Source: Candidatus Spechtbacterales bacterium
GTDB lineage: Bacteria; Patescibacteriota; Minisyncoccia; Spechtbacterales; 2-12-FULL-38-22
Assembly (NCBI GenBank): GCA_033721955.1
Contig: JAWVZY010000003.1
Location: 1-35,890 of the forward strand
Reading direction: 5' to 3'
Length of the DNA: 35,890 nucleotides
How positions within the stretch are numbered: the stretch's first letter is position 1; the number at the start of each line of letters is the position of its first letter. A model generated the notes under the pieces. The model did not search any database. It was not told where the DNA came from and was given only the letters and a program-made list of their open reading frames with translations. Below, one piece after another: positions 9,074 to 29,784 of this stretch. Made by a program: the position numbers and the translations under genes.

Positions 9074-9081
9074 CAAAAATT

Positions 9082-10484: not shown

Positions 10485-10494
10485 AAATATTACC

Positions 10495-10523
10495 TTGAAA
10501 AACGCTTAAATTAAGGTTATATT
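10495..10523 (+). promoter_or_regulatory. Sigma70-type promoter predicted to give a leaderless transcript
   Basis: TTGAAA (10495-10500), 17-nt spacer, TATATT (10518-10523), 7 nt, then ATG 10531. Confidence 0.5.
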
Positions 10524-10530
10524 TAATAAG

Positions 10531-13240: not shown

Positions 13241-13981
13241 ATGCCGCATATTTTTAACGAAGAATATTTTGAAAAGTATTATGAGGGGTGGAATAATACC
13301 TCTTTTTTGCAACGCTACCTTTTTGGATTAGTAGAATTTAGAAAGCCGTTATATAAATATATAAAAAAAGAAAAAGCCGGCGGAAAGCTTGTAGATTTAG
13401 GTTGTGGAGTAGGGGCTTTTTTAAGTTTAGCGCAAAACGATTTTAATACATATGGAGCTGATATCTCAGAATACGCTATATCTGAGGCACAAAAAAACAG
13501 TCCTAAAAGTAAACTAAAGCAGTTTGACGGCAATAAAAAACTTCCTTTTGAGGACGATTTTTTCGATGTTACTACATCATTTGACGTTGTAGAACATTTA
13601 GACGAGCCCTCAGGCTTTATAAAAGAGGCGGCTAGAATACTCAAGAAAGATGGTTTGCTTGTATTTACAACCCCAAACCCGCATTCGCTTGGAAAAAGGT
13701 TAAAAAAAGATGACTGGCATGGTTACCGGGATGAAAGTCACTATTCAATTAAAAAATCTAAAGAATGGAAAGATATGGTGTTGGCCGAAGGATTTGATAT
13801 TGTTAAGCTGAGATACGATTTTCTCTGGGATCCACCCTATATTAAAAATGTACCCGGTATATTTAGGAGAGTAGTGGAGGGACTTTTCTTGGTGGGCCCT
13901 ACATTGCCTCTGTATTTGTTGAATATAAATAGGATAAAATATCTGGGAGAAAATACACTAATTATAGCCAGGAAAAAATGA
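13241..13981 (+). CDS. Class I SAM-dependent methyltransferase
   Basis: 'VDLGCGVG', 'GADIS', 'LPFEDDFFD', 'VVEHL', 'TTPN'. Confidence 0.9.
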   Translation: MPHIFNEEYFEKYYEGWNNTSFLQRYLFGLVEFRKPLYKYIKKEKAGGKLVDLGCGVGAFLSLAQNDFNTYGADISEYAISEAQKNSPKSKLKQFDGNKKLPFEDDFFDVTTSFDVVEHLDEPSGFIKEAARILKKDGLLVFTTPNPHSLGKRLKKDDWHGYRDESHYSIKKSKEWKDMVLAEGFDIVKLRYDFLWDPPYIKNVPGIFRRVVEGLFLVGPTLPLYLLNINRIKYLGENTLIIARKK

Positions 13982-15138: not shown

Positions 15139-15143
15139 GTATG

Positions 15144-15214
15144 TGTCCAAATATAAAAAGTGTCCGAATATAAATTAATGTGTCCAGATAATAAAAATGT
15201 CCGAATTGTCCGAA
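15144..15214 (+). repeat. Five short direct repeats of TGTCC(G/A)(A/G)A
   Basis: TGTCC starts at 15144, 15161, 15181, 15198 and 15207; the fourth copy supplies the ATG at 15197. Confidence 0.75.
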
Positions 15215-16132
15215 AAAATTAAAGTTTCTGCAGGAGTTTTTGCCCATAATGAAGAAAAAAATATAGCAAAGTTGCTGGAGGCGCTTTTACAACAGCAGCT
15301 AAATAAGGTTGAGTTAGATGAGATAATTATAGTAGCATCTGGCTGTACAGATAAGACGGTTGAAATAGCTGAGCAATTTCAAAAACAGCAAAATACAAAT
15401 AATAAACCGCAAGATACCAATATAAAAATATTGGTACAGGAGAAAAGAGAGGGCAAAGTATCGGCTATAAACCTATTTCTACAAGAAGCAAATAATACCA
15501 CAGTTTTAATAGAAAGTGGAGATACCATTCCTGCCAAAAATACGGTAGAATATTTAATGGTGCCTTTTGAAAATACGAAAGTAGGCATGACAGGCGCCAG
15601 GCCTGTGCCAATTGATAAATCCCATACATTAATGGGTTTTGCCACAAACTTGCTTTGGGAACTTCATCATAGGATATCTCTTAAAACTCCAAAAATGGGG
15701 GAGATGGTAGCGTTTAGAAAAGATATTATACCCCGGCTTTCTTTAACAGCTGTGGATGAGGCACTTATAGAAGCAAAAATTAAAAAGGCCGGGTACGAGG
15801 TACATTATGTGCCCGAAGCAATAGTTTATAATAAAGGGCCTGAGACAGCAGGTGATTTTCTCAGACAGAGAAGGCGCATACATGCCGGACACCTGCATCT
15901 TAAAAAGCATCATGGTCATGCAGTTTCAACGGGTAATGTATTAACAATATTTAAAATGTTGGGAAGCATGTTGTATGGCATGTTGCGCGGTAATATTCGG
16001 GCGTTTGTGTATATACCCTCCACCGTTGCGCTTGAGGCAACGGGTAAAGCGCTTGGCTATTGGGACTTTTATGTAGCAAAAAAAGATCATATAGTTTGGG
16101 AGCAGGCAAGTTCAACAAAAGATTTAAATTAA
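15197..16132 (+). CDS. Glycosyltransferase family 2
   Basis: 'AHNEE', 'ASGCTDKT', 'REGK..AIN', 'QRRRI'. Confidence 0.9.
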   Translation: MSELSEKIKVSAGVFAHNEEKNIAKLLEALLQQQLNKVELDEIIIVASGCTDKTVEIAEQFQKQQNTNNKPQDTNIKILVQEKREGKVSAINLFLQEANNTTVLIESGDTIPAKNTVEYLMVPFENTKVGMTGARPVPIDKSHTLMGFATNLLWELHHRISLKTPKMGEMVAFRKDIIPRLSLTAVDEALIEAKIKKAGYEVHYVPEAIVYNKGPETAGDFLRQRRRIHAGHLHLKKHHGHAVSTGNVLTIFKMLGSMLYGMLRGNIRAFVYIPSTVALEATGKALGYWDFYVAKKDHIVWEQASSTKDLN

Positions 16133-16141
16133 TTATTTTAT

Positions 16142-17158
16142 ATGAGCAACACCTTCAATGTAGCAGTTATAGGTTCGGGTTATTGGGGCCCTAATCTTAT
16201 ACGTAATTTTTATCAATTACCTAAGGTAGAACTTTCTTATATTTGCGATCTTAGCAATGAGCGCTTGTCTCATATGGCCTCACTTTACCCTGATATTGCA
16301 CAGACAAAAGATTATAAAGATATTTTGCAGGATACAAATGTAGATGCGGTATGCATCGCAACTCCTGTAAGCACTCACTTTAAGCTTGCGTGGGAGGCTC
16401 TTGAAGCAGATAAGCATGTTTTGCTGGAAAAACCAATGACCGCAACCGGTGAAGAAGCGCGCAAACTCACAGAACTTGCTGAGCAAAAAGGCAAGGTTCT
16501 TATGGTTGGCCATACTTTTGAATATACAGCCCCTATTAACAAGTTAAAGGAAATAATAGATTCGGGAGAATTGGGTAAAATACTTTACATAAATATGAGC
16601 TGGCTTAATTTGGGAGTATTTCGTGAAGATGTGAATGTTGTATGGGATCTTGCGCCCCATAATATTTCTTTACTTAATATGTTACTTAAAGAAGAGCCCC
16701 GTACTATTAAGGCGATTGGCAGTGCCCATTATCATGAGGGCAAAGAAGATGTTGCATTCTTGAACGTTAGTTATCCTGATAATCTTATAGCGCATATTCA
16801 TTTAAGTTGGATAGATCCGGCTAAAACAAGAAAGCTTACAGTTGTTGGGGATAAAAAAATGGCTATTTTCGATGATTTAAATGATACTGAGCCAATAAAG
16901 ATATTTGATAAGAGTATAATAAAACAGCCGTATTATGAAAGCTATGGTGAATTTAAGTTGCTTTATAATTGGGGTGATGTTTATTCTCCAAAAATAGAAA
17001 ATACAGAACCATTAAAAGTTCAATGTTCTCACTTTATTGATTGTATTGAGAAGGGTAAAACTCCTCAAAGTGACGGGGTAAGCGGTATGCGCGTAGTTGA
17101 GGCCCTTGAGGCAGCCGAAAGATCGCTTAAAAATAATAGTGAATGGGTGCAGCTTTAA
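16142..17158 (+). CDS. Gfo/Idh/MocA oxidoreductase (WbpB/WlbA-like sugar 3-dehydrogenase)
   Basis: 'VAVIGSGYWG', 'IATP..TH', 'HVLLEKP', 'WDLAPH'. Confidence 0.88.
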   Translation: MSNTFNVAVIGSGYWGPNLIRNFYQLPKVELSYICDLSNERLSHMASLYPDIAQTKDYKDILQDTNVDAVCIATPVSTHFKLAWEALEADKHVLLEKPMTATGEEARKLTELAEQKGKVLMVGHTFEYTAPINKLKEIIDSGELGKILYINMSWLNLGVFREDVNVVWDLAPHNISLLNMLLKEEPRTIKAIGSAHYHEGKEDVAFLNVSYPDNLIAHIHLSWIDPAKTRKLTVVGDKKMAIFDDLNDTEPIKIFDKSIIKQPYYESYGEFKLLYNWGDVYSPKIENTEPLKVQCSHFIDCIEKGKTPQSDGVSGMRVVEALEAAERSLKNNSEWVQL

Positions 17159-17196
17159 CTTTGCAACTGTATTGTAAAGTTAAATTTGCACCTTAA

Positions 17197-17204
17197 AAGG
17201 AGGT
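17197..17204 (+). promoter_or_regulatory. Strong Shine-Dalgarno site
   Basis: AAGGAGGT just upstream of ATGATG at 17209/17212. Confidence 0.7.
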
Positions 17205-17208
17205 TATT

Positions 17209-17682
17209 ATGATGCACCAAAACATAACAGACGATGTAAAGCTGGGCAAGAATGTGAAGATTTATGATTTTGTTAATCTCTATGGATGTGAGATAGGCGA
17301 TAACTCAAAGGTTGGAACTTTTGTAGAGATACAAAAGAATGCAAAGATAGGAAAAAACTGCAAAATATCCTCGCATTCATTTGTTTGTGAGGGGGTAATT
17401 ATTGAAGATGATGTTTTTGTAGGGCATGGCGTAATGTTTACTAACGACGTCTACCCTCGTGCTACTGCAGGCGGAGAGCTCCAGACAGAAGATGATTGGG
17501 AAGTTATCGAAACAGTTGTTAAAAAGGGCGCATCAATAGGTTCCAATGCCTCTATTTTGGCGGGTATTACTATAGGTGAAAATGCGATAGTTGGCCTTGG
17601 GGCGGTTGTCACCAAAGATGTACCGCCCAATACAGTTGTTGCCGGAAATCCGGCAAAAGTTATCCGTACACTAGAGGCATAG
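17209..17682 (+). CDS. Hexapeptide-repeat sugar N-acetyltransferase (WbpD/WlbB-like)
   Basis: Left-handed beta-helix repeats; 'FVEIQK', 'FTND.YPR', 'VTKDVP...VVAGNPA'. Confidence 0.9.
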
Positions 17683-17689
17683 TAGGTAA

Positions 17690-17730
17690 TGGACAGGTTT
17701 TCATTTGAGAAAACCTGTCCCATTTTTTAA
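17690..17730 (+). terminator. Intrinsic terminator-like hairpin within the operon
   Basis: GGACAGGTTTTC-atttga-GAAAACCTGTCC (12-bp perfect stem) followed by CATTTTTT. Confidence 0.7.
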
Positions 17731-17768
17731 TTTTAAATTTGATCAAACCCAAAAGGGTTAATAAAAAT

Positions 17769-18875
17769 ATGCAGGTTCCGTTTTTAGATCTAAAAACTCA
17801 ACATAAAGATATAGAAGAAGACATTAAAAAAGAGTTTTCTGATATTTTAGAAAACACCGCTTTTGTATCCGGTAAAAGAGTGGAAAATTTTGAAAGTGAA
17901 CTTTCTGATTATTGTGGCTCTAATTATGCCGTTGCGTGTAATTCGGGCACTTCGGCTCTTCATCTGGCCTTGATGGGACATGGAATAGGCGATAAAGATG
18001 AGGTAATAACACAGCCAAATACATTTTTTGCAACGGCTGAGGCCATAAGTCACGCGGGTGCAACCCCTGTTTTTGCAGATATTGACCCACAAGCCCTGAC
18101 CCTTGACCCTAAAAAGGTAGAAGATGCAATAACCGAAAAGACAAGGGCGATTATAGTGGTCCATATCTATGGTATTGCATCACCTATGGATGAACTTCGC
18201 GAAATAGCTGATAAAAATAATTTGGTATTAATTGAGGATGCAGCTCAGGCTCATGGTGCCGAATACAGGGGTAAGAGGTTATCTTCATTGGGGGGCACGA
18301 CCTGTTTTAGTTTTTATCCTTCAAAAGTAATAGGCGCGGCCGGAGAAGGCGGTGCTATTGTCACAAATAACAGAGAGATTTATGAGCGCATGCTGGCTTT
18401 GCGCGATCATGGCCAGACAGCTAAGCATGAGCACACATATGTTGGCTATAATTACAGAATGACAGAATTGCAGGGAGCTGTGCTTGCAATTAAATTGAAA
18501 AAATTGGATAACTGGCTGGCTTCACGCAGAAATAATGCGGCTCTTTATTCGCGGTTACTTGCGGGGCTTGAGCCAAGATTAACCACTCACCCTTCTCCCG
18601 AATATTCTAATTGCGCTTATTATCTTTATGTAGTTTCTGCACGTGATCGTGATAATCTTAAGAAATACTTGAATGAAAACGGCATAGGAGCTGCGGTACA
18701 TTATCCCACGCCCGTTCATTTGCAGCCGGCATATAAGGAGCTTGGATACAATAGAGGGGATATGCCTTGTGCTGAAAAACATGCTGAAGAAATACTTAGC
18801 TTACCTATGTACCCAGAGCTTAAAGAAGAGCAAATAAAATATGTTTGCGATAAAATTAAGGAATTTTATTCATGA
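17769..18875 (+). CDS. DegT/DnrJ/EryC1/StrS PLP aminotransferase (WbpE/WlbC-like)
   Basis: Start at MQVPFLDL; 'NSGTSALHLAL', 'IEDAAQAHG', 'FSFYPSK', 'GYNYRM', 'LSLPMYP'. Confidence 0.93.
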   Translation: MQVPFLDLKTQHKDIEEDIKKEFSDILENTAFVSGKRVENFESELSDYCGSNYAVACNSGTSALHLALMGHGIGDKDEVITQPNTFFATAEAISHAGATPVFADIDPQALTLDPKKVEDAITEKTRAIIVVHIYGIASPMDELREIADKNNLVLIEDAAQAHGAEYRGKRLSSLGGTTCFSFYPSKVIGAAGEGGAIVTNNREIYERMLALRDHGQTAKHEHTYVGYNYRMTELQGAVLAIKLKKLDNWLASRRNNAALYSRLLAGLEPRLTTHPSPEYSNCAYYLYVVSARDRDNLKKYLNENGIGAAVHYPTPVHLQPAYKELGYNRGDMPCAEKHAEEILSLPMYPELKEEQIKYVCDKIKEFYS

Positions 18876-19552
18876 AAATATCCATAATTTTACCGGCATA
18901 TGATGAACAGGAGAATATTGAAAAAGCAGTTGAGGAATGTGATAAGGTTTTGCCCCGGCATTTGGCCGAATATGAGCTTGTTTTGGTAAATGATGGAAGT
19001 TCTGACAGGACAGGTGAGATAATAGATAAAATAGCCGAACAGAAGCTCCATGTAAAAGCTCTTCATCACAGGCAAAATAAAGGATTGGGTGCGGCGGTGC
19101 GCACAGGCGTTGAAAATTCCGAATATGAATATATATTTTTAAGCCCTTCAGACCTTCAATTTGATATAGCAGAGATAAAAAATTTTATTGATGCGGCCGG
19201 CAATGCCGATATAATTGCCGGTTATCGGGTAAGCCGCAATTATAATTGGTACAGAAAAATGAATACTCGCGCCAATCTTTTGCTACTAACGCTACTTTTT
19301 GGACTGCGTGTGCGCGACCCTAACTGGGTTAAATTATTTAAGAGAGATATTTTTGAGATAGCTCCCATACGCTACGAAGGATTTTTTTGGGATTCTCAGG
19401 TTTTGATAGATGCACAAAAACGAGGGTTAAAAATAAAAGAAATACCCGCCGGCATTAGAGATCGTGTTGCGGGTAAAGCAAGTGGTTCAAGTCCGCTTAG
19501 GGTTTTCAAAACCCTCTTAGAAATGTTAAAATTTAGAATTACAAACAAGTAA
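18872..19552 (+). CDS. GT2 polyprenol-phosphate glycosyltransferase-like enzyme
   Basis: 'ILPAYDEQENI', 'VNDGSSDRT', 'N.GLGAA', 'SDLQF'; short DPM1-like length. Confidence 0.85.
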   Translation: MKISIILPAYDEQENIEKAVEECDKVLPRHLAEYELVLVNDGSSDRTGEIIDKIAEQKLHVKALHHRQNKGLGAAVRTGVENSEYEYIFLSPSDLQFDIAEIKNFIDAAGNADIIAGYRVSRNYNWYRKMNTRANLLLLTLLFGLRVRDPNWVKLFKRDIFEIAPIRYEGFFWDSQVLIDAQKRGLKIKEIPAGIRDRVAGKASGSSPLRVFKTLLEMLKFRITNK

Positions 19553-19553
19553 T

Positions 19554-21119
19554 ATGGAATTTATAAAAGAAAATAAATTAACTGTAATTTTTGCCGGCAT
19601 TTTGCTTTTATTAACGTTTATACTCTGGTGGCCGACCAGGACGTTGCCTTATTGGTGGGATAGTGCCGGTTACATAATGGGTGCGGCTAATTATTATCTG
19701 GAAACTAATTTTAGCTCATTTATATTTCCCCCAGATGCTCCGTTTTCAGTACACGCTCATCCGCCTCTTTTTTCATTTATCTTAGCTTTGCTTTGGAAGG
19801 CGTTTGGCCAGTCGCTTTTGGTAAGTCATATATACTATTTGTTTTTTGTTATCCTTGCTTCTCTGGGTACTTACTGGCTCGGTAAAGAGATAGCCGATTT
19901 TAAAGATGATCTGTTAAATCATTTGGTGGGTTTTTCAGCTTCACTCTTTTTATTATTATCACCTCTTTATCTTGCTCAAATAGGAATAATTTATGTAGAG
20001 ATACCCGCAGCCGCCTTTGCTGTATGGGCGGTTTACTTTTTCATAAAAAGAAAGGCGCTCGGTTATATGGCAGCAGGCGCCTTAATGGTGCTCATGAAAG
20101 AAGTTTCAATTGTCATAATTGCGGCAGTAGGACTTGTGCTTCTTGCCCATTTTATAAAAGATTTCAAAACTAAAAAAGAAGAGAGAAAAAATCTAACAAT
20201 TCAGTTTTTAAAAGATGCTGCTGTGTATGCGTTTCCTGCCCTTGTTTTATTTGGATGGTTTGTATGGCACAGAGCGGTAGCGGGGTGGTGGTTTAATCAG
20301 CCGCACTATCAGGAAACATTTAATCAGAATTTAGTCACATTCTCTGCTGATAAATTCAAATTTGTATTTAATTACTTTTTTACTGCTCAGTCGAGATGGA
20401 TGATTGCCGCACTTATGGCAATATTTTTATTTATTATATTTTCGCGTCACGGTGTAAAAAGGTTTTTGAAAAAAGAGCTTTATCCTATATTTTTAGCAAT
20501 GCTTTTCGTACCGCTGTTATTCGGTAAAATAGATTTTATAAATCGTTATATAATCTTTGGTTTACCTTTTTATTTTATCGCTTTTAGTTATATTTGGGCC
20601 TATGTCCTGCATCCTGAATTTAAAGAACATGCGGCTGAAACGGGAAAGAAAGTAGTTTATATTGGCTCAGCTCTTCTTATAGGTTTTATGTTTACACTGC
20701 ATTGGAATAACGGCATAAAACTTACAACTTGGCATTTTGCCCCAATTGAAGAGAACGTTGAATATATGGATGTAATTCGCGTTGGAAAGGAAATGGCAAA
20801 TTATATAGAAACAAATTATCCTACAGCCACAGTTTATACGGGCTTCCCCTCTAATTACATGTTGAGAAAACCCTTTCAGGGATATGTATCTAAACCGGTA
20901 GATGCCAGAGATTGCACCGCCTATAAAGAAGGGGATAAAGTAGATTTGGTGGTTTTCCATGTTTTGAGCCCTACACAGGTGCAGTGCAAAAACTTGATAC
21001 AACATCTCGGCCTTCAGCCATTAGACGAGGGTGGTTTTGCGCATAATGGCAAATGGATGCAGATATATGTACCACCTGAAAAGATAGAAGAGGCACAACA
21101 AGCTGAGAGCGATCTTTAA
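19554..21119 (+). CDS. GT-C membrane glycosyltransferase (ArnT/PMT-like)
   Basis: 'WWDSAGY' after TM1, 'HPPL', many TMs, 'RY' motif, extracytoplasmic C-terminal domain. Confidence 0.8.
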   Translation: MEFIKENKLTVIFAGILLLLTFILWWPTRTLPYWWDSAGYIMGAANYYLETNFSSFIFPPDAPFSVHAHPPLFSFILALLWKAFGQSLLVSHIYYLFFVILASLGTYWLGKEIADFKDDLLNHLVGFSASLFLLLSPLYLAQIGIIYVEIPAAAFAVWAVYFFIKRKALGYMAAGALMVLMKEVSIVIIAAVGLVLLAHFIKDFKTKKEERKNLTIQFLKDAAVYAFPALVLFGWFVWHRAVAGWWFNQPHYQETFNQNLVTFSADKFKFVFNYFFTAQSRWMIAALMAIFLFIIFSRHGVKRFLKKELYPIFLAMLFVPLLFGKIDFINRYIIFGLPFYFIAFSYIWAYVLHPEFKEHAAETGKKVVYIGSALLIGFMFTLHWNNGIKLTTWHFAPIEENVEYMDVIRVGKEMANYIETNYPTATVYTGFPSNYMLRKPFQGYVSKPVDARDCTAYKEGDKVDLVVFHVLSPTQVQCKNLIQHLGLQPLDEGGFAHNGKWMQIYVPPEKIEEAQQAESDL

Positions 21120-21122
21120 AAT

Positions 21123-21977
21123 ATGAGTGTATTGGGCAATATTTATTTTGCTTCCCCCGGTTTTTTGCGTAAGATATTTGGAGGCATTTATAAGGCGTAT
21201 AAGGATTTTGGAGCAGATATGAGAAGAGCACTGAGCGAGAGAAATTTTCAAAAAGCTTTAATTGATAGTTCAGAGGGCAAAATAGAAGATCTTAATATTT
21301 TTGAGCAAAAAATATATTCACAACATGGAGAAGATGGAATATCCCGGGCAATATTTGAAAAGATAGGCACTGTGGGTAAATTTTGCGTAGAATTCGGTGT
21401 TGGTAATGGCTCCGAATGCAATACGCGTTATTTTATAGAAAAAGAGGGCTGGGATTATCTGCACATGGACGCGGGAGATACAGTAGTGCCTTTTACAGAT
21501 ATAAAAAGAGAGTTCATTACAGCAGAGAATATAAATAATTTATTTGCCAAATATACAGTTCCGCGTGAATTTGACTTGCTTTCAATAGATATTGATTACA
21601 ATGATTATTGGATATGGAAGGCAATAGAGGATTATAGGCCTAGAGTGGTAATTATAGAATATAATGCAAGCATTCCCTTCGGGGAAAGTAGGGCGGTTAA
21701 ATACAACCCTGAGGCCTCTTGGGATGGAACTAATTATTTTGGTGCAAGTTTGTCCGCATATATAAAACTTGCAGAAGAAAAAGGATATAAGCTTATTGGC
21801 TGCGACAGCACGGGAGTTAACGCCTTTTTTGTAACTCGGGAACTTGCAGATAAGCACTTTGCATTAAAAGATGCGAAGCAATTGTATAAACCTCCCCGTT
21901 ATGGTGCAAAAGAGGGCGGTGAATATATAGGTCATCCTCCAAATAATAAAAACTCGGATCAATGGATAAACATTTAG
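21123..21977 (+). CDS. FkbM-like putative methyltransferase
   Basis: 'YSQHGEDG', 'VEFGVG', 'SIDIDYNDYWIW', 'IEYN', 'GVNAFFV'. Confidence 0.7.
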   Translation: MSVLGNIYFASPGFLRKIFGGIYKAYKDFGADMRRALSERNFQKALIDSSEGKIEDLNIFEQKIYSQHGEDGISRAIFEKIGTVGKFCVEFGVGNGSECNTRYFIEKEGWDYLHMDAGDTVVPFTDIKREFITAENINNLFAKYTVPREFDLLSIDIDYNDYWIWKAIEDYRPRVVIIEYNASIPFGESRAVKYNPEASWDGTNYFGASLSAYIKLAEEKGYKLIGCDSTGVNAFFVTRELADKHFALKDAKQLYKPPRYGAKEGGEYIGHPPNNKNSDQWINI

Positions 21978-22666
21978 TAATAATACCCACATATAACGAG
22001 ATAGATAATATTAAGGAACTCGTTCCTGAGATTTTAGAATTACCCCATGATTTTCATATTCTTGTGGTAGATGATAATTCACCCGATGGCACAGGGGAGC
22101 TGGTTGAAGATATGTCCCTAAAGCACGAGAGGATAAATGTACTCAGGAGGCCCTGGAAGGAGGGTCTTGGTAAAGCGTATATTGCCGGCTTCAAGTGGGC
22201 TCTTGATAAAGATTATGATACAATATTGCAGATGGATGCGGATTTTAGCCATTTGCCTGATTATTTACCGCGCTTTATTAAGAAGTTGAATAAACATGAT
22301 TTGGTCATTGGTTCGCGCTGTTACAATGGTCGCTTGAGTGTGGTAAATTGGGATATTAAAAGAGTATTGCTTAGTCGGCTTGGTACTACCTATGCACGGC
22401 TTGTAACGGGTGTACCTATGACTGATGCTACCGCGGGTTTTAAGGGTTGGCGTAGGGAGGTGCTTGAAGCGATAGATCTGGACAAAGTACTTTCTGAGGG
22501 ATATTCATTTCAGATAGAAATGAATTGGCGCGCAAAACAAGCGGGAGCAAATATTGGTGAAATGCCCATAATATTTTTTGACCGTAGACATGGCGAGAGT
22601 AAAATGAACGCCTCTATTGTAAAAGAGGCGCTATGGATACTTTGGAAAATAAAAATAAAAAAATGA
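21962..22666 (+). CDS. Polyprenol monophosphomannose synthase (Ppm1/DPM1-like GT2)
   Basis: 'IIPTYNE', 'VDDNSPDGTG', 'GLGKAY.AGF', 'QMDADFSH', 'GYSFQIE', 'F.DRR.G.SKM'. Confidence 0.9.
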   Translation: MDKHLVIIPTYNEIDNIKELVPEILELPHDFHILVVDDNSPDGTGELVEDMSLKHERINVLRRPWKEGLGKAYIAGFKWALDKDYDTILQMDADFSHLPDYLPRFIKKLNKHDLVIGSRCYNGRLSVVNWDIKRVLLSRLGTTYARLVTGVPMTDATAGFKGWRREVLEAIDLDKVLSEGYSFQIEMNWRAKQAGANIGEMPIIFFDRRHGESKMNASIVKEALWILWKIKIKK

Positions 22667-24915
22667 ATTTTTTTAAGAAAAACTTAATACCTATAATTCT
22701 TTTTCTGGTTGTTTTTGGCGTGTATCTTTATACGGCCCCTCCGGGTGCTACCAATTACGCTGATTCAAATGAATTAATTACTGCATCATACATACTGGGC
22801 GTGCCTCATCCGCCCGGCTATCCGCTTTTTGTGCTATTAGGAAAGTTATTTAGCTTGATACCTTTTGGCACCGTGGCTTATCGCTATGCTATAATGGCCG
22901 GTTTTCTTGGTTCTCTTACAGTGGTGCTTGTATATAAAGTTGTTTTACGCGTGCTAACAAAAGGAGGCGGCGATAAAAAAGAATTTAACTTGGTAGCATT
23001 TATAAAAGGAGAAGATCCTCGCCTGTTTGCACTTACCGGCGCTTTATCACTTGCATTTTCGTATCTATTTTGGCTTTATTCTTATATTCCCGAGGCCTTT
23101 GCTGTAAGCAACTTTTTTGCCGCTCTTATAATTTATATTGGGATAAATTGGTATTTTGAAAATAAAAAACAAGAAGTAAAAGGCAATGGGCAAGCCAAGG
23201 AGCAGAATTGGCTAAAGAGAAAAATGGGCGACAATTATTATCCGTTTGTTTTGTCTGTAGTATTTGTATTAGGGCTTTTAGCGCATCAGATAATTATATT
23301 CTTTGTTCCCGCTATGCTCTATCTTATATGGATAACCGACAGACATCTTTTTCGTCCATCAAAGAGGTGGTTTAAAATATTTGCCGGAATATTAATAGGA
23401 TTATTGCCTGTATTATATTTTCCCATTTCTACAGCGATGTTTAATCCGGTAATTGATTTTGGCAATGTAGATTCTCTAAAAGATGCCTCCGATCTTCTAA
23501 GTAGGCGCTATTATGCCAAAACATCTTCAACAGGAAGGGCATACCTGCCTTCAAATGCAAATTTAGAAGAGCGCCTTAATGACTTTCCCTGGTATTTTTC
23601 TCAGCTTAGTAAGTATATGAATTGGGCTGTTGTAGGACTTGGGATAATAGGCGTATTGTATAGTTTTTATATTTTCATCAACGGCAAAAGAAAAGATATT
23701 CTGCATTTTATTGTTTTGGCCTATGTCTTTTCGGGGGTTATATTGGCAATGTATGCCTTTGTAAACCATGAAAAGATACACGCAACATATAATAGCTTAG
23801 CGGTGCATGAGCGTATGTACCTTACAGGGCTTGTGGTCTTTGGCATGGTTGTAGGGCTGGGTGCTAAATATTTATTTGATCTTCTAAAAAAGAATAACTT
23901 AGAGTTTGGTTATAGCGCACTTTTGATATTAACTCTTCCCGTTATTGTCTTTAACAGTAACTTTGACAAGGCAAATAAGCATGACTTTCATTTAGGCGAG
24001 GATTATATGCACAATCTGTTTTTGAATATGGAGCCAAATGCCATATTTATAACTCACGGGGATATGCCTTCTTTTGCAGCTTATTATTATAAATATGCCA
24101 AGGGCTTGAGGCAGGATGTAACAATAGTGCCCCTTAGCATGCCTCATTGGCAGTTACCTACAATAAAAGAGGAAGACCCTGAGCTTTGGGATGCAGATAC
24201 CAGGGTATTGGCTCTTGTAGTGCGGGACATTATAGAGGAGAACATGGGTCGCCGCCCTATATATTTCACAGGTCTTCCGGGAGAATTTATACGTTTATAC
24301 GGCCTTGCAGAAAATCCTTATGTTCTTAGCCCCAGGGGACTTATACAGGAGGCAACAGAAAAATTCGAACCTATAGAAGATCCGGCTCTGTGGGAAGATA
24401 TGCGCTGGCGCCACTCAAAAAAAGCTGAGGATTATGAAGAGGGTTTTGCCAAAGAAATTATAGAGCAGTATGTAATAGGCCATTTTAATTCGTTTGCCTG
24501 GTATCTCAGATATGGTTATAACGATCTTGCAAAGAGAGAATATGACCTTCTTATGGCAAAAGATCCTGACCACAGAATAGCAAATAATGCTAAAGGTTTG
24601 TGGCAAAATAGCGCTCAAACTACACAGAGGAATGTTAAAAATCTCTCCCGCACAAAAGAGAATTTAGAACAGGAAACATTGGAGCTTATAGAAAATGGCG
24701 ATTCAAACGGTGCTATGGGAAACCTTTTGTATCTTGCCGAGCTTGATCCAAAGCATGTTGACTATCGTCTCTATCTTGCTAATTTATTTGGCAATCGCGG
24801 CTGGATACATGAAGCTGAGCAGCAAGTTAAAAAGGTTTTACAGATAGATCCGGCAAATGACATAGCAAATAAGCTAAAACGTCATATAGAAAATCTAAAA
24901 GCTCAAAATGAGTAA
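22663..24915 (+). CDS. DUF2723/TMEM260-family GT-C protein O-mannosyltransferase-like protein with C-terminal TPRs
   Basis: 'DSNELITA...LGVPHPPGYPL', multiple TMs, 'GD..SF', TPR-like tail; ATGA overlap with the upstream gene. Confidence 0.85.
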   Translation: MNFFKKNLIPIILFLVVFGVYLYTAPPGATNYADSNELITASYILGVPHPPGYPLFVLLGKLFSLIPFGTVAYRYAIMAGFLGSLTVVLVYKVVLRVLTKGGGDKKEFNLVAFIKGEDPRLFALTGALSLAFSYLFWLYSYIPEAFAVSNFFAALIIYIGINWYFENKKQEVKGNGQAKEQNWLKRKMGDNYYPFVLSVVFVLGLLAHQIIIFFVPAMLYLIWITDRHLFRPSKRWFKIFAGILIGLLPVLYFPISTAMFNPVIDFGNVDSLKDASDLLSRRYYAKTSSTGRAYLPSNANLEERLNDFPWYFSQLSKYMNWAVVGLGIIGVLYSFYIFINGKRKDILHFIVLAYVFSGVILAMYAFVNHEKIHATYNSLAVHERMYLTGLVVFGMVVGLGAKYLFDLLKKNNLEFGYSALLILTLPVIVFNSNFDKANKHDFHLGEDYMHNLFLNMEPNAIFITHGDMPSFAAYYYKYAKGLRQDVTIVPLSMPHWQLPTIKEEDPELWDADTRVLALVVRDIIEENMGRRPIYFTGLPGEFIRLYGLAENPYVLSPRGLIQEATEKFEPIEDPALWEDMRWRHSKKAEDYEEGFAKEIIEQYVIGHFNSFAWYLRYGYNDLAKREYDLLMAKDPDHRIANNAKGLWQNSAQTTQRNVKNLSRTKENLEQETLELIENGDSNGAMGNLLYLAELDPKHVDYRLYLANLFGNRGWIHEAEQQVKKVLQIDPANDIANKLKRHIENLKAQNE

Positions 24916-27145
24916 GCTGAAAAAAAATATAATACCTTTGGTGTTGCTGGCATTTGTATTTGGTCTTTATATTTCTACAGCATCTCCGGTTGCCACTAAT
25001 TACGCAGATTCAAACGAACTTATAACGGCCTCATATACTCTGGGTATACCTCATCCTCCGGGTTATCCTCTCTATGTATTAATAGGGAAGCTGTTTAGCT
25101 TTATACCTGTAGGCACTATTGCATTTAGATATGCAATAATGAGTTCATTATTTGGAGCGCTTACAGTAATGCTCGTATACACCACTTTAACCAAGGTTTT
25201 AAGTAGAAATTATACAGATCCTCTGCCAAAATTAAAAAATACGAAGTATTTGCTATACGTAGTAGTACCCGCTCTCACGGGTGCGCTTTCTTTGGCATTC
25301 AGCTATCTTTTTTGGCTTTATTCAATAGTGCCTGAAGTTTTTGCACTTAGTAACTTTTTTGCGGCACTCATAATCTATCTTGGTATAAGTTGGCATTTTA
25401 GTGTTAAAAGTTCAAAATCAGAAGTTAAAAATAAATTACGTAATAAATTTGAGGACTTGATCGGTCAAAAAAATTATTACCCCTTTTTAATCGGAGTTGC
25501 AAGCGGGCTTGGCTTTTTGGCTCATCAGGTTGTGATATTTCTTGCTCCGGCCCTTTTATATCTTATATGGATAACAGATAAAAAACTCTTTGTACCAACA
25601 AAAAGGTGGCTAAAAGTATTTGGCGGTATTGCTGTGGGCCTTATACCTTTAGTTTATTTTCCGCTTGTATCTTATTTATCAAACCCTATCATTGATTTTG
25701 GCAATGTAAATAGTTTTCAAAATTTCTGGGATCTTTTGAGTCGTAAGCTATATGCTACAGCCGAGGGTAAGGGAAATGCCTATTTACCCAACGCACTTAA
25801 TTTAGGGGGGCGGCTGGGAGATTTGCCAAATTATTACTCTACTCTTTTTGATTATCTTACCTGGCCTGTAATGTTTTTGGGTTTTCTGGGGCTTGGTTAT
25901 TTTGCATACATGCTTGCCGCGGGGAAATTAAAAAATTCAAAAGTTTTTATTGGGGCTTCCTATTTAGGATTAGGCATTTTATTTGCGATGTATACTTGGC
26001 TGGACGCGGAGAAAAGAGCTAATGCCGGTTATAATTTGCTTGGAGTGCATGAACGGATGTATATAATAGGGACTATTGCTTTTGCCCTGCTTGTGGGCAT
26101 TGGCTCAAATATTTTTTTAAAAGGTATAAAAAAGAGCAAGATATTGAGCGTGCCGATAATGGCTTTTCTTTTGCTGGCTGTACCTATGTATTCTTTGCAG
26201 ATAAATTATGCCAAAGCCGATAAGAGCGATTTTTACCTGGGGGAGGATTATGCCCACAACCTTTTTGTAAATATTGAAGATAACGCCATATTTTTTGTCA
26301 GGGGTGATATGCCTACGTTTGCGGCGTACTATTGGCAATTAGTAAGGGGCCAGCGTACTGATGTTACCCTCATTCCTTTAAGTTTGCCTACCTGGAAACA
26401 AAAAGATATCTTAGAACAGCATCCCGAACTTTGGGATGTGGACTCTCAAAAACTTGAACTTGTTATACGTGATATAATTTCAGATAACATAGATAAGCGC
26501 CCTATATACTTTACAGGTCTTCCCGCCGATGAAATGGCCCTGCTTGGCCTTGCAGAAACTCCATATGTATTAAGTCCGCGAGGGCCAATTCAGCGGGTCA
26601 CAAAAGAATTTGATCCGGCTCCCGATACGGACTGGTGGGCTAATATGCGTTTTCGGGGTTCTGATGAGGCAAGCGATTATCATGACTGGTTTGCCAAAGA
26701 AATTATAGAGCAATATCTAATAGGTCATTTCAATTCAATGAGCTGGTACCTTAGGTACGGTTATAACGATCTTGCCAGGGCAGAGCTTAATGAAATGCGC
26801 AGGATAGATTCCGGTCATAATACAACAGAGCGGGGCACATATGTATTTGGACAAAAAGGATCTGAGGGGCGTGTGGAGAGAGATCCTTCAAGAAATGAAC
26901 TTCAATTACACAGAGAGGCCGTCGAGTATATACGCCAAAATAGACCACTGGGTGCACTGGGCAATTATCTTTATTTGGTTGAACAAGACCCTCAAAATAT
27001 TGACTATAAACTAAGCTTGGCTAAGATATTTGCCGGCCTGGGCTGGCGCCCTGAGGCAGTAGAAACCTTGAATGAGCTTCTTGAACTGGATCCTGAACAC
27101 AAAGAGGCAAAGGGAATGCTCAGGCAATGGGAATTAATTGAATAA
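24908..27145 (+). CDS. DUF2723/TMEM260-family protein, tandem paralog
   Basis: Same motifs ('DSNELITASYTLGIPHPPGYPL', 'FAKEIIEQY.IGHFNS..WYLRYGYNDLA'), colinear with the previous gene. Confidence 0.85.
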   Translation: MSKLKKNIIPLVLLAFVFGLYISTASPVATNYADSNELITASYTLGIPHPPGYPLYVLIGKLFSFIPVGTIAFRYAIMSSLFGALTVMLVYTTLTKVLSRNYTDPLPKLKNTKYLLYVVVPALTGALSLAFSYLFWLYSIVPEVFALSNFFAALIIYLGISWHFSVKSSKSEVKNKLRNKFEDLIGQKNYYPFLIGVASGLGFLAHQVVIFLAPALLYLIWITDKKLFVPTKRWLKVFGGIAVGLIPLVYFPLVSYLSNPIIDFGNVNSFQNFWDLLSRKLYATAEGKGNAYLPNALNLGGRLGDLPNYYSTLFDYLTWPVMFLGFLGLGYFAYMLAAGKLKNSKVFIGASYLGLGILFAMYTWLDAEKRANAGYNLLGVHERMYIIGTIAFALLVGIGSNIFLKGIKKSKILSVPIMAFLLLAVPMYSLQINYAKADKSDFYLGEDYAHNLFVNIEDNAIFFVRGDMPTFAAYYWQLVRGQRTDVTLIPLSLPTWKQKDILEQHPELWDVDSQKLELVIRDIISDNIDKRPIYFTGLPADEMALLGLAETPYVLSPRGPIQRVTKEFDPAPDTDWWANMRFRGSDEASDYHDWFAKEIIEQYLIGHFNSMSWYLRYGYNDLARAELNEMRRIDSGHNTTERGTYVFGQKGSEGRVERDPSRNELQLHREAVEYIRQNRPLGALGNYLYLVEQDPQNIDYKLSLAKIFAGLGWRPEAVETLNELLELDPEHKEAKGMLRQWELIE

Positions 27146-27173: not shown

Positions 27174-27210
27174 AATCCCGTCTGTATGCATGCAGGCGGG
27201 ATTTAGTTTT
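27174..27210 (+). terminator. Intrinsic terminator ending the glycan operon
   Basis: AATCCCGTCTGTAT-gc-ATGCAGGCGGGATT stem (with G-U pairs) followed by TAGTTTT. Confidence 0.75.
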
Positions 27211-27244: not shown

Positions 27245-27253
27245 TGATATAAT
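27245..27253 (+). promoter_or_regulatory. Extended -10 promoter for the putative major subunit gene
   Basis: TGaTATAAT; DnaA-box-like TTTTCCACA at 27207-27215 and TTGTCCACA at 27271-27279. Confidence 0.6.
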
Positions 27254-27396: not shown

Positions 27397-28575
27397 ATGA
27401 CAGCAGTTATACAAACAGCTAAAAAGAAGTATTACAGAGAAGTCATTACAATAGGGCTTATATTGTCGTTTCTGTTGCTCTCAACCGTATTTAGCACGGC
27501 ACAAGCCGGCGTATTTACAGGTGAGAGAGACACGCTTTCCAATTCAAGGCCTGGAGTAAACTCAAACCACACTGTGCGCTTTGTCACAGACAACGCCTTT
27601 GCGGTTGATGAGACCTTGGTTATAGCTTTTGACAGCACATTTGATGGCAGTTCCTTAACCGAGCCGGGTGATTTTGACCTGAGTTACGGTGGCGCTTCAG
27701 GTGATGCAACAGAAGTATTGCTTACAGCAGGTGCTCCAAGTGCTACTGAATGGAGGGTAGAGGCAGACAACACTGTAATTACATTTATTACAGCATCAGC
27801 TGCAAACACACTTCCTGGCTCAGGTGAAATAGTAGTTGTGGAGATAGGAACAAACGCTGACGCTCAAACTCAGGGCACTAACCAGATGGTTAACCCGTCT
27901 AAGGTTGCAGCAGAGGGTACAGCCGACATTCTAAATGTTAACTTGACCTATGATGCAAACGGTGTAAATGACACAGGTACAGCTCTTGTAGCAATTATTG
28001 AGGGTGTTACGGTTTCAGCGACAGTTGCAGAAACGCTTTCTGCAAGAATTGAAACAGATGTAGATGCAAACTGTGATGCTACATTTGGCAGTCAGGATAA
28101 CAGTGGTAGCGTAACTAACACCTCTGTTACCTATGGAACACTGACAGCAGATCAATTCCGACATGAGTGCCAGAAGCTTATTGTGAGCACTAACGCGGCA
28201 AACGGATTTTCAGCTACTTCTCAGGAAAACACAGCGCTTTACGAAAGTTCAGCAGGAAATACTATTGATAATTTTGCTGAAGGCAGCGCAAGTCCTACTA
28301 CAGGAAATACATGGTCTACTACATATGGATTTGGATATGCTTGTTCAAACACATATGATGGTGGAATTCAAAGCGGTGTTTGCTCTGAAACAAACAGCTT
28401 GAATTTCCGACCATTTGCAGATCGTTCGATCTCGCAGGATCCTGCAGAGTTCTTATCTTCAGCGGGAGCAACAACAAATACCTCCCTTGTTAACTACAGG
28501 ATAAGAGTTTCGGCAGATCAGCAGGCGGGTGATTATTCAAACATAGTGACTTACGTGTTTACACCTACGTTCTAA
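27397..28575 (+). CDS. Secreted acidic beta-rich protein, putative major surface filament/layer subunit with C-terminal WxL-like/pilin-like domain
   Basis: Signal peptide ending AQA; no TM anchor; ends QQAGDYSNIVTYVFTPTF; has its own promoter and terminator. Confidence 0.75.
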   Translation: MTAVIQTAKKKYYREVITIGLILSFLLLSTVFSTAQAGVFTGERDTLSNSRPGVNSNHTVRFVTDNAFAVDETLVIAFDSTFDGSSLTEPGDFDLSYGGASGDATEVLLTAGAPSATEWRVEADNTVITFITASAANTLPGSGEIVVVEIGTNADAQTQGTNQMVNPSKVAAEGTADILNVNLTYDANGVNDTGTALVAIIEGVTVSATVAETLSARIETDVDANCDATFGSQDNSGSVTNTSVTYGTLTADQFRHECQKLIVSTNAANGFSATSQENTALYESSAGNTIDNFAEGSASPTTGNTWSTTYGFGYACSNTYDGGIQSGVCSETNSLNFRPFADRSISQDPAEFLSSAGATTNTSLVNYRIRVSADQQAGDYSNIVTYVFTPTF

Positions 28576-28693: not shown

Positions 28694-28865
28694 AGAATAT
28701 TGAATACAGTATATAGGATAAATAATAGCAATATACTATATTGTTAGCCATGCAGAGTACATGGAATTTAGCCAAAAAATAAAACATTCTAATCTAAGAA
28801 AGCTTCTGCTTGTGATTATAGCGGGGGTGTTTTTGTTGTATTCTATATTTTATATCCTATATTCT
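28694..28865. repeat. Inverted pair of heptamer tandem arrays flanking start codon 28761
   Basis: AGAATAT TGAATAC AGTATAT AGGATAA (28694-28721) versus GTATTCT ATATTTT ATATCCT ATATTCT (28838-28865). Confidence 0.65.
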
Positions 28866-29750
28866 GCCCCGAGGGCACATGCTGCAGGTATTAGTATATC
28901 CCCCTTAACCTTTGAAATAAATGTAAATCCGGGTGATGTTGTTACAAATTCGCTGCGCGTGCATAATCCAACAGATGGCAGTGTGCAGATAAATATAGAT
29001 GTGGAAAATTTCGCACCAAGGGGCGAGGAAGGAAAGGTTACGGTGAGCGAGGATTTTGGGGAAAGTTACTCTTTGAGGGATTGGCTTATATTAAATCCTT
29101 CGAGTTTTACTATTGGACCCGGGAGCACACAGGTTATTGATTTTACAATACAGGTACCCCGGAATGCTGAACCGGGAGGTCATTATGGCAGTATTTTGGC
29201 TTCAGTTGGCGGGGGTGCGGGAGCCGGTCAATTAGGCATTGCTCAAAAAATAGGTTCTTTGCTTTTGGTTAATGTAGCAGGGCCGGTGGAAGAAAAGATG
29301 TGGGTAAAGAGCATGACTCCTGTTATAGAAACAGCCAAAGATACTTACCAGGATACGGATTTTGTAGAATATGGACCAATTATTATGCGCACTCGCTTTG
29401 AAAACTTAGGAACTGTGCATTTAAAGCCTCGTGGATATGTTTTATTGAAGGATATGTTTGGCAGGGAAGTAGCAAGAGAAGAAATACCTCAGGTTAATGT
29501 TTTGCCAAACTCTATACGGCGGGTTGATATGGAAATGGGTCAAAAATGGATGTTTGGTAAATACACAGCAGATCTTACAGCAATTTATGGTTCAAAGAAT
29601 GAACCCCTTACATTTTCTACGAGTTTTTGGGTTATACCCTGGACTGCGGTGACTTTTGTCGGAATCGGTCTTTTGATATTATTGTGGATACTTATAAAAG
29701 CACGCAAGAGACTAAAACTTGCATTTAAGATATTGTTCCGAGGCGGATAA
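28761..29750 (+). CDS. WxLIP/DUF916-DUF3324-like, chaperone-like protein with C-terminal TM anchor
   Basis: Signal peptide (AHA); 'ISISPLTFE', 'FTIQVPRNAEPGGHYGSI', 'FENLGTVHLKPRG', 'NVLPNSIR', 'GKYTA', 'FWVIPW' then TM. Confidence 0.75.
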   Translation: MEFSQKIKHSNLRKLLLVIIAGVFLLYSIFYILYSAPRAHAAGISISPLTFEINVNPGDVVTNSLRVHNPTDGSVQINIDVENFAPRGEEGKVTVSEDFGESYSLRDWLILNPSSFTIGPGSTQVIDFTIQVPRNAEPGGHYGSILASVGGGAGAGQLGIAQKIGSLLLVNVAGPVEEKMWVKSMTPVIETAKDTYQDTDFVEYGPIIMRTRFENLGTVHLKPRGYVLLKDMFGREVAREEIPQVNVLPNSIRRVDMEMGQKWMFGKYTADLTAIYGSKNEPLTFSTSFWVIPWTAVTFVGIGLLILLWILIKARKRLKLAFKILFRGG

Positions 29751-29784
29751 AAGTAAACACTTATTTTTTAATATTAAAATTTTA

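Follow-up and report, generated by a model that had tools for sequence, protein, structure and literature searches.

The stretch of DNA considered here (the window) is the entire 35,890-base contig JAWVZY010000003.1 (C3) of a Candidatus Spechtbacterales genome (GCA_033721955.1, hereafter G000) that comprises 814 kb in 89 contigs and is 82.85% complete. All of its sizeable genes, like every feature given below by its window coordinates, lie on the plus strand, and homologs of its proteins are labelled Candidatus Shapirobacteria, Roizmanbacteria and Patescibacteria group bacterium, among others. Two tandem genes in the window encode predicted TMEM260-like glycosyltransferases. They are preceded by the gene of a putative polyprenyl-phosphate-hexose synthase and are flanked by genes of a Pam-type pilus. 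The link between a Pam pilus and a TMEM260-like gene is new. Our reading of it is that the TMEM260-like pair O-glycosylates the Pam pilus subunits in a polyprenyl-phosphate-hexose-dependent manner; we give this a probability of about 0.55, the acceptor being proposed from genomic context.

The first of the two genes, paralog a (22663..24915), would encode 750 amino acids from the ATG at 22663, with an alternative ATG at 22633, and paralog b (24908..27145) would encode 745; the two genes overlap by 8 nt. The window proteins were scanned with the Pfam and NCBIfam profile libraries, in which the TMEM260-like family, formerly DUF2723, is PF11028 with a Pfam gathering score of 24.2 bits. Both paralogs scored well above it at 117.6 and 134.7 bits (6.8e-34 for a; 4e-39 for b, together with tetratricopeptide repeats, TPR), and the search of the whole genome gave 139.2 and 122.2 bits. 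A first-pass annotation, made from the letters of this DNA without database searches, had named both genes as DUF2723 plus TPR paralogs, and the profile hidden Markov models confirm the DUF2723 assignment. Across 751 aligned columns the paralogs are 50% identical, with 62-68% identity in residues 1-100, 56-60% in residues 451-600 and 31-32% in the TPR tail (651-745). Paralog a is the more divergent copy, as all six close relatives found (L162-L167, introduced below) score higher against b, and a quick tree of TMEM260-like enzymes with SH-aLRT (approximate likelihood ratio test) support places the two in a clade of their own at 100%. The tails were earlier taken as a sign that the paralogs may serve different subunits. 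Their divergence is real, but the same identity gradient is repeated throughout the TMEM260-like subfamily, in which no part is less conserved than the TPR tail; tail divergence alone is therefore no evidence of a substrate split. A third TMEM260-like copy occurs elsewhere in G000, on contig C69 (2133-2801), where it follows a 676-residue open reading frame (ORF) away from pilus genes and is truncated by the contig end.

TMEM260 has been described as a protein O-mannosyltransferase of IPT domains, and the available portion of that report notes "distant homologs in bacteria" (PMC10214176). The residues that are essential in the human enzyme include, according to the accessible part of a recent preprint, D52 and H67 of the sugar-recognition motif, R264, Y267, R355 and D441, the last of which lies in the luminal Rossmann-like domain and, as the catalytic base, activates the hydroxyl of the peptide threonine (10.64898/2026.03.17.711096). 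Paralog b was aligned to human TMEM260 (PDB 9rql) at 9.9e-27 over residues 16-496. The equivalents of D52 and H67, donor-binding residues of the first loop, are D34 and H49 in both paralogs. Those of R264, Y267 and R355, which contact phosphate and sugar, are R279, Y282 and R383 in b and R281, Y284 and the R of HERMY in a. The D441 equivalent is D467 in b, within an RGD/GDMP motif that aligns to human RGD 439-441, and the D of GDMP in a. All six equivalents are thus kept in both paralogs, and they are invariant in 15 of the 15 members of the subfamily alignment.

The AlphaFold2 model of paralog b (predicted local distance difference test, pLDDT, 74.3; predicted template-modelling score 0.74) has the domain order expected of this family. 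A helical membrane core of the glycosyltransferase C (GT-C) type extends to about residue 454, with parts of it at pLDDT 44-60, and is followed by an alpha/beta domain with five strands at 461-565 and by the helices of the TPR tail at 594-744. In a Foldseek search with this model, the best structural matches were STT3, PglB and AglB, all of them GT-C enzymes that glycosylate peptides. Matches were also obtained to ArnT, AftA and AftB, which are GT-C enzymes acting on lipids or polymers, and the solved TMEM260 entries were not among the matches listed. Paralogs a and b are, judged by sequence, bacterial TMEM260-like enzymes.

The donor for such enzymes would be made by the product of the gene immediately upstream. 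GT2b (21962..22666) is a family 2 glycosyltransferase (GT2) of 234 amino acids that resembles the polyprenyl-phosphate-hexose synthases Dpm1 and Ppm1. It matches PF00535 at 8.6e-32, carries a DxD-type motif (DAD at residue 92) and has no transmembrane segment that could be seen in its sequence. Its best solved relative is the Pyrococcus dolichyl-phosphate-mannose synthase 5mlz (3.8e-29), followed by ArnC (5.7e-10). Its stop codon overlaps the ATG of paralog a in an ATGA at 22663-22666, so that the coupling of a Ppm1-like synthase to two DUF2723 plus TPR paralogs, as first described, holds. A GT2b-like gene also lies directly upstream of the TMEM260-like gene in five other loci (L064 and L164-L167) and is fused to it in two (L065 and L067). 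The fusion genes are L065:8950-11457 (835 amino acids) and L067:8997-11456 (819 amino acids). GT2b probably makes a polyprenyl-phosphate-hexose, with mannose suggested by analogy. Mannose, the sugar named in the first-pass annotation, is thus a candidate. The only PF00483 genes of the genome encode an RmlA-long protein (391.5 bits, above cut-off) and a GalU-like protein, ManC was not found among the PF00483 matches of this 82.85%-complete genome, and one PGM/PMM-type mutase is encoded.

The genes on both sides of these enzymes point to a pilus. The Pam pilus was described in 2026 in Candidatus Mycosynbacter amalyticus and is, in the available part of its description, built by donor-strand exchange from two-domain Ig-like pilins with membrane-anchored PapD-like chaperones (PMC13278184). 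The gene that follows paralog b (27397..28575) encodes a protein of 392 amino acids with a signal peptide and two predicted beta-sandwich domains. NCBIfam holds the Pam models NF058579 and NF058581, the latter representing the C-terminal domain of Pam pilins with a cut-off of 55 bits. ORF 27397 matches NF058581 weakly, at 21.7-24.8 bits (19.9-24.8 bits over all matching window proteins), and the evidence that it is a Pam-type pilin comes from the family level: of the 28 homologs aligned to it, 25 hit the model at E<=0.01, the best at 9.3e-26, and four match PamT. Its AlphaFold2 model (pLDDT 83.3) has an N-terminal helix at residues 2-32 and then two all-beta domains. Compared with the PDB by Foldseek, the model resembles generic two-domain Ig-like adhesins and pilins (E about 1e-6, with low TM scores of 0.15-0.26); Pam pilin structures were not among the matches listed, and a phmmer search of PDB sequences gave no match.

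The next gene (28761..29750) encodes a PamC/D-like chaperone of 329 amino acids with weak WxLIP_PGBD/fn3_5 matches and a C-terminal transmembrane helix that is followed by a basic tail. A complex of this chaperone with the C-terminal domain of pilin 27397 was predicted with a score of 0.78, compared with 0.15 for the best control. The mark set for this score was attained by 116 of 157 solved complexes and by 2 of 215 mismatched pairs, with alignments built in this analysis; since chaperone-usher complexes have already been solved, the pass may partly reflect likeness to them. Across runs, contacts agreed to at least 77% and the pLDDT of the partners was at least 82. In the predicted complex, chaperone residues 159-163 pair with the last strand of the pilin (383-388).

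A second pilin-chaperone module opens the window. Its first gene (2..3052), with its 5' end beyond the window, encodes a Pam-pilin-like protein of at least 1016 amino acids that is rich in serine and threonine (S/T). It is read as ORFs 2-1120 and 1910-3052, which share one frame that is open from 1121 to 3052, and the C-terminus of ORF 1910 matches NF058581 weakly (20.2 bits). Homologs of this gene are at least 672 amino acids long in a same-family genome (G003) and at least 1186 in locus L163. A single in-frame TAA at 1118-1120 splits the gene and could mark a pseudogene, an assembly error or readthrough. It is followed by a PamC/D-like chaperone paralog (3064..4080), with a G003 ortholog at 1e-115. 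ORFs 3064 and 28761 are paralogs of one another (phmmer E 1e-14 and 4e-15), both with a signal-like N-terminus and a C-terminal transmembrane helix plus basic tail. The last gene of the upstream module (4073..4765) encodes a secreted protein that has two G003 homologs at the same place (5e-36 and 5e-37) and no match to a Pfam or NCBIfam family.

Downstream of the second chaperone the operon continues. The gene at 29719..31176 encodes a pilin-like N-terminus, Big_13/Big_6 Ig domains and a dockerin-like C-terminus, and the genes at 31187..34487 (ORFs 31187 and 32322) encode two paralogous surface proteins of 400 and 721 amino acids (paralogy 5e-41), the first with a C-terminal transmembrane anchor. 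These two form a conserved operon tail and matched no Pfam or NCBIfam family; like ORF 29719, they have orthologs in G003, L162 and L163. An SNHT motif occurs in ORF 27397 (residue 56) and ORF 29719 (residue 77), about 20 residues past the signal peptide, and its histidine is nearly invariant in the pilin family. A second paralog set of ORFs 29719, 31187 and 32322 is grouped on G000 contig C19 (5631-9705). On the evidence of sequence and predicted structure, the flanking genes are a divergent Pam-type donor-strand pilus operon of S/T-rich pilins and membrane-anchored chaperones.

Among the 643 genome ORFs of at least 150 amino acids, in which the mean S+T fraction is 0.107, ORF 1910 ranks first (0.279), ORF 2-1120 second (0.247) and ORF 27397 fourth (0.237). 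The S/T-rich beta proteins noticed earlier on both sides of the enzymes are therefore well founded as such and are Pam-type pilin-like. ORFs bordering the island that holds the enzymes therefore account for three of the four highest S+T fractions in the genome, and they are the candidate substrates.

The association of enzyme and pilus recurs in other genomes. A search of genome contigs with paralog b as a single protein returned no relative; relatives came from whole-genome family searches and from an alignment query. A homolog search defined a close TMEM260-like subfamily at 35-52% identity, and a metagenome scan with the alignment of this subfamily as query gave the six closest loci, L162-L167, at 38-43% identity. 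In L163, a lone TMEM260-like gene (754 amino acids) stands between two pilin-chaperone modules with no polysaccharide genes: it is preceded by homologs of ORFs 1910 (1186 amino acids) and 3064 and followed by homologs of ORFs 27397 (1e-70), 28761, 29719, 31187 and 32322. The TMEM260-like gene alone thus suffices for the pilus linkage, and it occupies the operon position of the island in the window; the first-pass annotation had gone further and supposed that the entire 22-kb glycan locus may decorate the filament. L162 begins inside a TMEM260-like gene and continues with a 27397-like pilin (1e-67), a chaperone and the rest of the operon. PF11028 plus TPR and weak NF058581 matches were obtained in both loci with Pfam and NCBIfam. 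These are the only two of the six with at least 1 kb of DNA downstream of the enzyme, and a 27397-like pilin is next in both. The four others (L164-L167) carry the 3' block of the island, with GT2b directly upstream of the TMEM260-like gene, and end 104-692 nt past that gene; L164 and L165 carry further island genes. A possibility named at the outset, that DUF2723 genes would be unlinked to these modules in relatives, is contradicted by L162 and L163, the closest relatives that carry the gene with flanking DNA. An even species sample had made the adjacency of Pam and TMEM260-like genes appear unique to G000, a view that was overturned by the metagenome scan. A more distant pair of loci, L168 (1013-9967) and L170, encodes, in this order, an S/T-rich protein, a run of three membrane proteins with TPR (TPR-only, 702 amino acids; Wzy_C plus TPR, 712; PF11028 plus TPR, 767) and a chaperone-like protein.

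In the window, the enzymes are part of an insertion into the operon. G003 is 94% complete and PF11028-negative, and its pilus locus (L078) reads 1910-like, 3064-like, two 4073-like genes, a 239-residue ORF, 27397-like, 28761-like, 29719-like, 31187-like, 32322-like and 34601-like. The window genes at 5047-18875 are absent between the pilus modules of G003. As the operon is contiguous there and PF11028 is lacking, the 4.8-27.2 kb segment of the window is an island of about 22 kb inserted co-directionally in the middle of the operon. The 239-residue ORF of G003 (L078:11569-12288) is an IS200-like Y1 transposase (PF01797, 1.1e-7) and occupies exactly the junction that holds the island in the window and the lone TMEM260-like gene in L163. 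A foreign origin of the island was not borne out by GC content, which at 0.380 shows no clear anomaly against 0.397 in the genome (standard deviation 0.017 in 5-kb windows).

How might such a pair act on a pilus? GT2b would load polyprenyl phosphate with a hexose at the cytoplasmic face, and the polyprenyl-phosphate-hexose would be flipped to the outer face of the membrane. There, the TMEM260-like paralogs would transfer the hexose to serine or threonine of Sec-exported, still unfolded Pam subunits, each held during transfer by the TPR and alpha/beta lobe. Glycosylated subunits would then be captured by the membrane-anchored chaperones. That Pam pilins are the acceptors is our inference, as are the type of hexose and any specialization of the two paralogs. 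The available part of the preprint on human TMEM260 describes an extended peptide that is gripped by the TPR plus alpha/beta lobe through a long sequon (10.64898/2026.03.17.711096), and extended-peptide binding fits a co-translocational glycosylation step. The earlier proposal of a glycosylation system for the flanking proteins gains from the dedicated donor synthase and from the pilus linkage in L162 and L163, while its mannose is unproven and its fold-recognising character is contradicted by the same portion of the preprint, which speaks for binding of an extended peptide (10.64898/2026.03.17.711096). The human acceptor sequon (P-x5-P-x3-G-P-x2-[GA]-G-G-x2-[TS]) was found in 0 of the 931 genome ORFs, the flanking proteins included. 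Acceptor specificity must therefore differ from that of human TMEM260.

TMEM260-like genes have also been found beside pilus genes of another class. PF11028 was retrieved as 27 loci from the 26 other positive genomes of an even phylum sample (401 genomes, G000 counted), and nine of these 26 genomes have the order PilB-PilT-PilC-pilin-TMEM260-like in one orientation, with PilD directly after in five. L069 was checked by Pfam and the eight other loci by phmmer with the L069 proteins. In the quick tree, these type IV pilus-linked enzymes group together (SH-aLRT 93) in a clade that spans seven families of the Candidate Phyla Radiation (CPR) and stands apart from the window pair. Of 155 loci selected by similarity, 151 have a detectable TMEM260-like ORF, and their neighbours were scored within three ORFs: type IV pilus genes were found in 23, GT2a/b-like genes in 25 and Pam-like genes in 3, and 12 of the loci have more than one TMEM260-like copy. 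In L061, a GT-C with weak PF11028/PMT_2 matches is one gene away from two chaperone-like LysM proteins. Three loci (L111, L115 and L125) from metagenome-assembled genomes labelled "uncultured Gammaproteobacteria" have PilB, PilC, PilT, PilD or pilin matches within three ORFs of the TMEM260-like gene; either the type IV pairing extends beyond the CPR or these bins are mislabelled. G000 itself has type IV pilus operons on contigs C1, C8 and C37, of which the C1 operon is devoid of a TMEM260-like gene.

A number of observations weigh against O-glycosylation of Pam subunits by the pair. Some come from the loci. A terminator-like hairpin (27174..27203; 13 pairs, 6 of them G-C, plus a T-run) lies 29 nt past the stop of paralog b and separates it from the pilin gene, and an extended -10-like element (TGnTATAAT, 27245..27253), read from the sequence, lies upstream of the pilin gene; together they suggest that pilin gene 27397 is its own transcription unit. 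A consensus promoter/terminator scan of the window gave no more sites than shuffles (31 vs 31.2; 9 vs 9.4), and of its sites the single strongest hairpin was retained; the scan requires a -35 hexamer, and the TGnTATAAT element is not among its sites. The human sequon and ManC were not found, as said above. In L165, the 692 nt after the TMEM260-like gene hold a minus-strand ORF and no pilin. G003 pilins are equally S/T-rich (0.25) with no PF11028 enzyme, and the IS200-like gene at the same junction may mean that this is just a permissive insertion site. Others come from distribution. PF11028 exceeds its cut-off in 2 of 61 relatives (G000 counted), and none of the 15 genomes that share the genus, family or order of G000 was found to carry it. 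In the even phylum sample, 27 of the 401 genomes have PF11028 (G000 counted) and 98 have an NF058581 match at E<=1e-5, which in 33 exceeds the cut-off (G210 in both tallies). NF058581 at E<=1e-5 is not enriched with PF11028, being present in 8 of 27 positive and 90 of 374 negative genomes. Of these 33, G424 alone carries PF11028, and the majority of Pam pili thus manage without the enzyme. Of the seven other genomes with both families, five have listed positions (not G063 and G118), and in these the two genes are on separate contigs or at a distance of 250 kb. Four loci (L064-L067) place the gene in a housekeeping context of Peptidase_M16, the TMEM260-like gene, AP_endonuc_2 and AI-2E, with a GT2 that overlaps the TMEM260-like gene in L064 and is fused to it in L065 and L067. 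In L073, two TMEM260-like genes in tandem are accompanied by two YfhO genes and one GT2a-like gene, and 92 of the 151 loci have none of the scored neighbours.

Taken together, these points could indicate that the enzymes O-glycosylate many Sec-exported surface proteins, possibly including type IV pilins encoded elsewhere in the genome, and that the Pam operon merely offers a permissive or hypervariable site for surface genes. The lack of genome-level enrichment, the IS200-like gene at the G003 junction, the housekeeping loci with no substrate nearby, the distant third copy on C69 and the type IV operons on C1, C8 and C37 all fit such a general role. We consider it unlikely, as the lone gene of L163 sits exactly between the pilin-chaperone modules and that of L162 directly upstream of a pilin, the enzymes linked to type IV pili fall in a clade apart from the window pair, and the C1 type IV operon of G000 has no TMEM260-like gene. 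The acceptor might also be no protein at all: the GT-C enzymes would then decorate an envelope glycopolymer or glycolipid made by the island, like the CsbB/GtrB-YfhO and ArnC-ArnT pairs, with the pilus genes as mere neighbours. The cassette does accompany polysaccharide-type genes in L164 and L165, the pair of L073 adjoins YfhO and GT2a-like genes, the GT-C at 19554 is ArnT/PMT_2-like, and the fold is shared by GT-C enzymes whose acceptors are lipids or polymers, such as ArnT, AftA and AftB. This explanation seems quite improbable to us given that the catalytic base equivalent to D441 and the peptide-binding TPR lobe are conserved, the top structural matches are protein glycosyltransferases, the L163 enzyme is encoded in a pilus operon free of polysaccharide genes, and type IV pilin genes are repeatedly found paired with the family.

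The two paralogs could, finally, have no separate roles. A recent tandem duplication would have left the paralogs redundant, or one of them decaying, with no division of labour and only b functional on the ancestral substrate. The fully supported clade of a and b, the better scores of all six relatives against b and the family-wide divergence of the TPR tail agree with this, as do the single copy of L163 and the absence of a second copy in L164-L167, where the contigs end 104-692 nt past the gene. Copy a, though, is an open frame of 750 amino acids with all six essential residues, and 50% identity would denote an old duplication, after which a useless copy should have decayed in a 0.8-Mb genome; we regard redundancy as a long shot. 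O-glycosylation of the Pam subunits by the pair remains our preferred reading.

The proposed system resembles several characterized ones in part. With human TMEM260 (PDB 9rql/9rqm/9rqn) it shares PF11028, the succession of domains (GT-C core, alpha/beta, TPR), the six essential residues and a Dpm1-type donor synthase. It differs in that the window enzymes are bacterial, would face outward on the cell membrane and occur as two tandem paralogs, and in that the human sequon is absent. Moreover, the candidate acceptors are pilus subunits here and IPT domains in human, and the sugar is assigned here by analogy. With the Pam system of Candidatus Mycosynbacter amalyticus it shares two-domain Ig-like pilins with signal peptides and PapD-like chaperones with a C-terminal transmembrane helix. 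A chaperone strand is likewise predicted in the C-terminal domain of the pilin, and the CPR-restricted NCBIfam model is matched at the family level. The window pilins are, in contrast, very divergent (21.7-24.8 bits against 55), and no equivalents of PamT or PamR were identified. The available text of the Pam preprint contains no mention of glycosylation, mannose, glycan, DUF2723 or TMEM260 and describes no glycan island (PMC13278184).

Pilin glycosylation itself is well known in other bacteria. PilO/PglL O-oligosaccharyltransferases carry Wzy_C, and TfpW does not, to our knowledge, belong to PF11028. In Pseudomonas aeruginosa strains that belong to group IV, TfpW is implicated in arabinofuranosyl transfer to pilin in the portion of the report at hand (10.1101/2020.04.19.049825). 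The window enzymes are like TfpW and PilO/PglL in that a membrane glycosyltransferase is encoded beside a pilin gene and would modify pilin serine or threonine outside the cytoplasm from a lipid-linked donor. They differ in protein family and in that type IV pilins are the substrates there, whereas donor-strand pilins are the neighbours here. In actinobacteria, Ppm1/Pmt combines a polyprenyl-phosphate-mannose synthase with a GT-C that acts on Sec-exported unfolded proteins, and Pmt is a PF02366/GT39 enzyme with broad clients and no TPR lobe. The pairing of synthase and GT-C is alike, while PF11028 with TPR and the pilus-operon context are particular to the present case. The flagellar and pilin glycosylation islands of Pseudomonas are variable glycan islands within the cluster of the filament that they decorate and use cytoplasmic or Wzy_C-type transferases; the insertion of an island is similar, and the enzyme family and filament type differ. 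The pilin-modifying Ogt of cyanobacteria was rejected as a relative, as it is an unrelated GT41 enzyme. A study of Saccharibacteria type IV pili predicted glycosites and left the enzyme unnamed. A literature search returned no assigned substrate for the bacterial TMEM260 family and no publication joining TMEM260 and pilin, and DUF2723 was seldom named among the matches listed.

The available part of the Pam preprint reports density of an unidentified modification at PamA Ser356 (PMC13278184), which shows that Ser-linked modification of Pam pilins is possible. As PF11028 is missing from the genomes that match the Pam model most strongly, this modification is probably of other origin. Tentatively, a wider role may be considered, which appears possible rather than probable to us: TMEM260-like GT-C enzymes would be widespread O-glycosyltransferases of bacterial pilus subunits, independently recruited to type IV pili and to the CPR-specific Pam donor-strand pili, two filament systems without structural kinship, and acting on unfolded subunits at the Sec exit. 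The pair with diverged TPR tails would split the Pam subunits in this genome, and in enzyme-bearing lineages the Ser-linked Pam density might stem from a modification of this broad type. The repeated association with two pilus classes that are unrelated to each other would put pilus subunits first among the candidate clients of the bacterial enzymes. The link between TMEM260-like and Pam genes provides a testable enzyme-substrate pair, paralog b and GT2b with the 27397 pilin, and a bacterial model for the human disease enzyme TMEM260. It is also a candidate explanation for how ultrasmall episymbionts might vary or mask the filaments of host contact.

The remaining genes of the island lie upstream of GT2b. 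A second pair of lipid-sugar synthase and GT-C, correctly recognized in the first-pass annotation, begins with GT2a (18872..19552; 226 amino acids), a polyprenyl-phosphate-sugar-synthase-like GT2 (PF00535, 1e-23). Its best PDB match is 5mlz (2.9e-16), ArnC is matched at 1.6e-12, and the gene is conserved in L165 and L167. The adjacent gene (19554..21119) encodes an uncharacterised ArnT/PMT_2-like GT-C, a membrane protein of 521 amino acids. Its PMT_2 score of 24.2 bits falls under the cut-off of 26.1, its Atlas model has TM scores of 0.75-0.80 to PMT_2-bearing clusters, and no solved PDB relative was found by sequence; orthologs lie upstream of GT2b in L164-L166. Between this pair and GT2b is a weakly matched FkbM-like methyltransferase gene (21123..21977; PF05050 E 2.5e-4, below cut-off), with no homolog in L164-L167 and thus window-specific among the close loci. 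Together with the upstream Wzx-type genes, GT2a and the 19554 GT-C may lengthen the glycan or contribute to a different polymer.

The 5' part of the island (5047..18875) encodes ATP sulfurylase/APS kinase, a Wzx-like flippase, a sulfotransferase, GT2, HAD, GT4, a GHMP kinase, SIS, a methyltransferase, further GT4 and GT2 enzymes, a GFO/UDP-GlcNAc-3-dehydrogenase-like protein, a hexapeptide acetyltransferase and a DegT aminotransferase. The section at 13978-17739 is co-linear in L164 and L165. In the middle of this part (9981-13240), a HAD phosphatase, a GHMP kinase and a SIS_2 isomerase are encoded close together, a trio reminiscent of a nucleotide-heptose pathway; Pfam found no nucleotidyltransferase in the window. 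The island opens at 5047-9073 with a fused ATP sulfurylase/APS kinase, which has an N-terminal DUF2061 membrane segment, the Wzx-like flippase and the sulfotransferase. These genes suggest that this CPR bacterium has a surface glycan that is sulfated.

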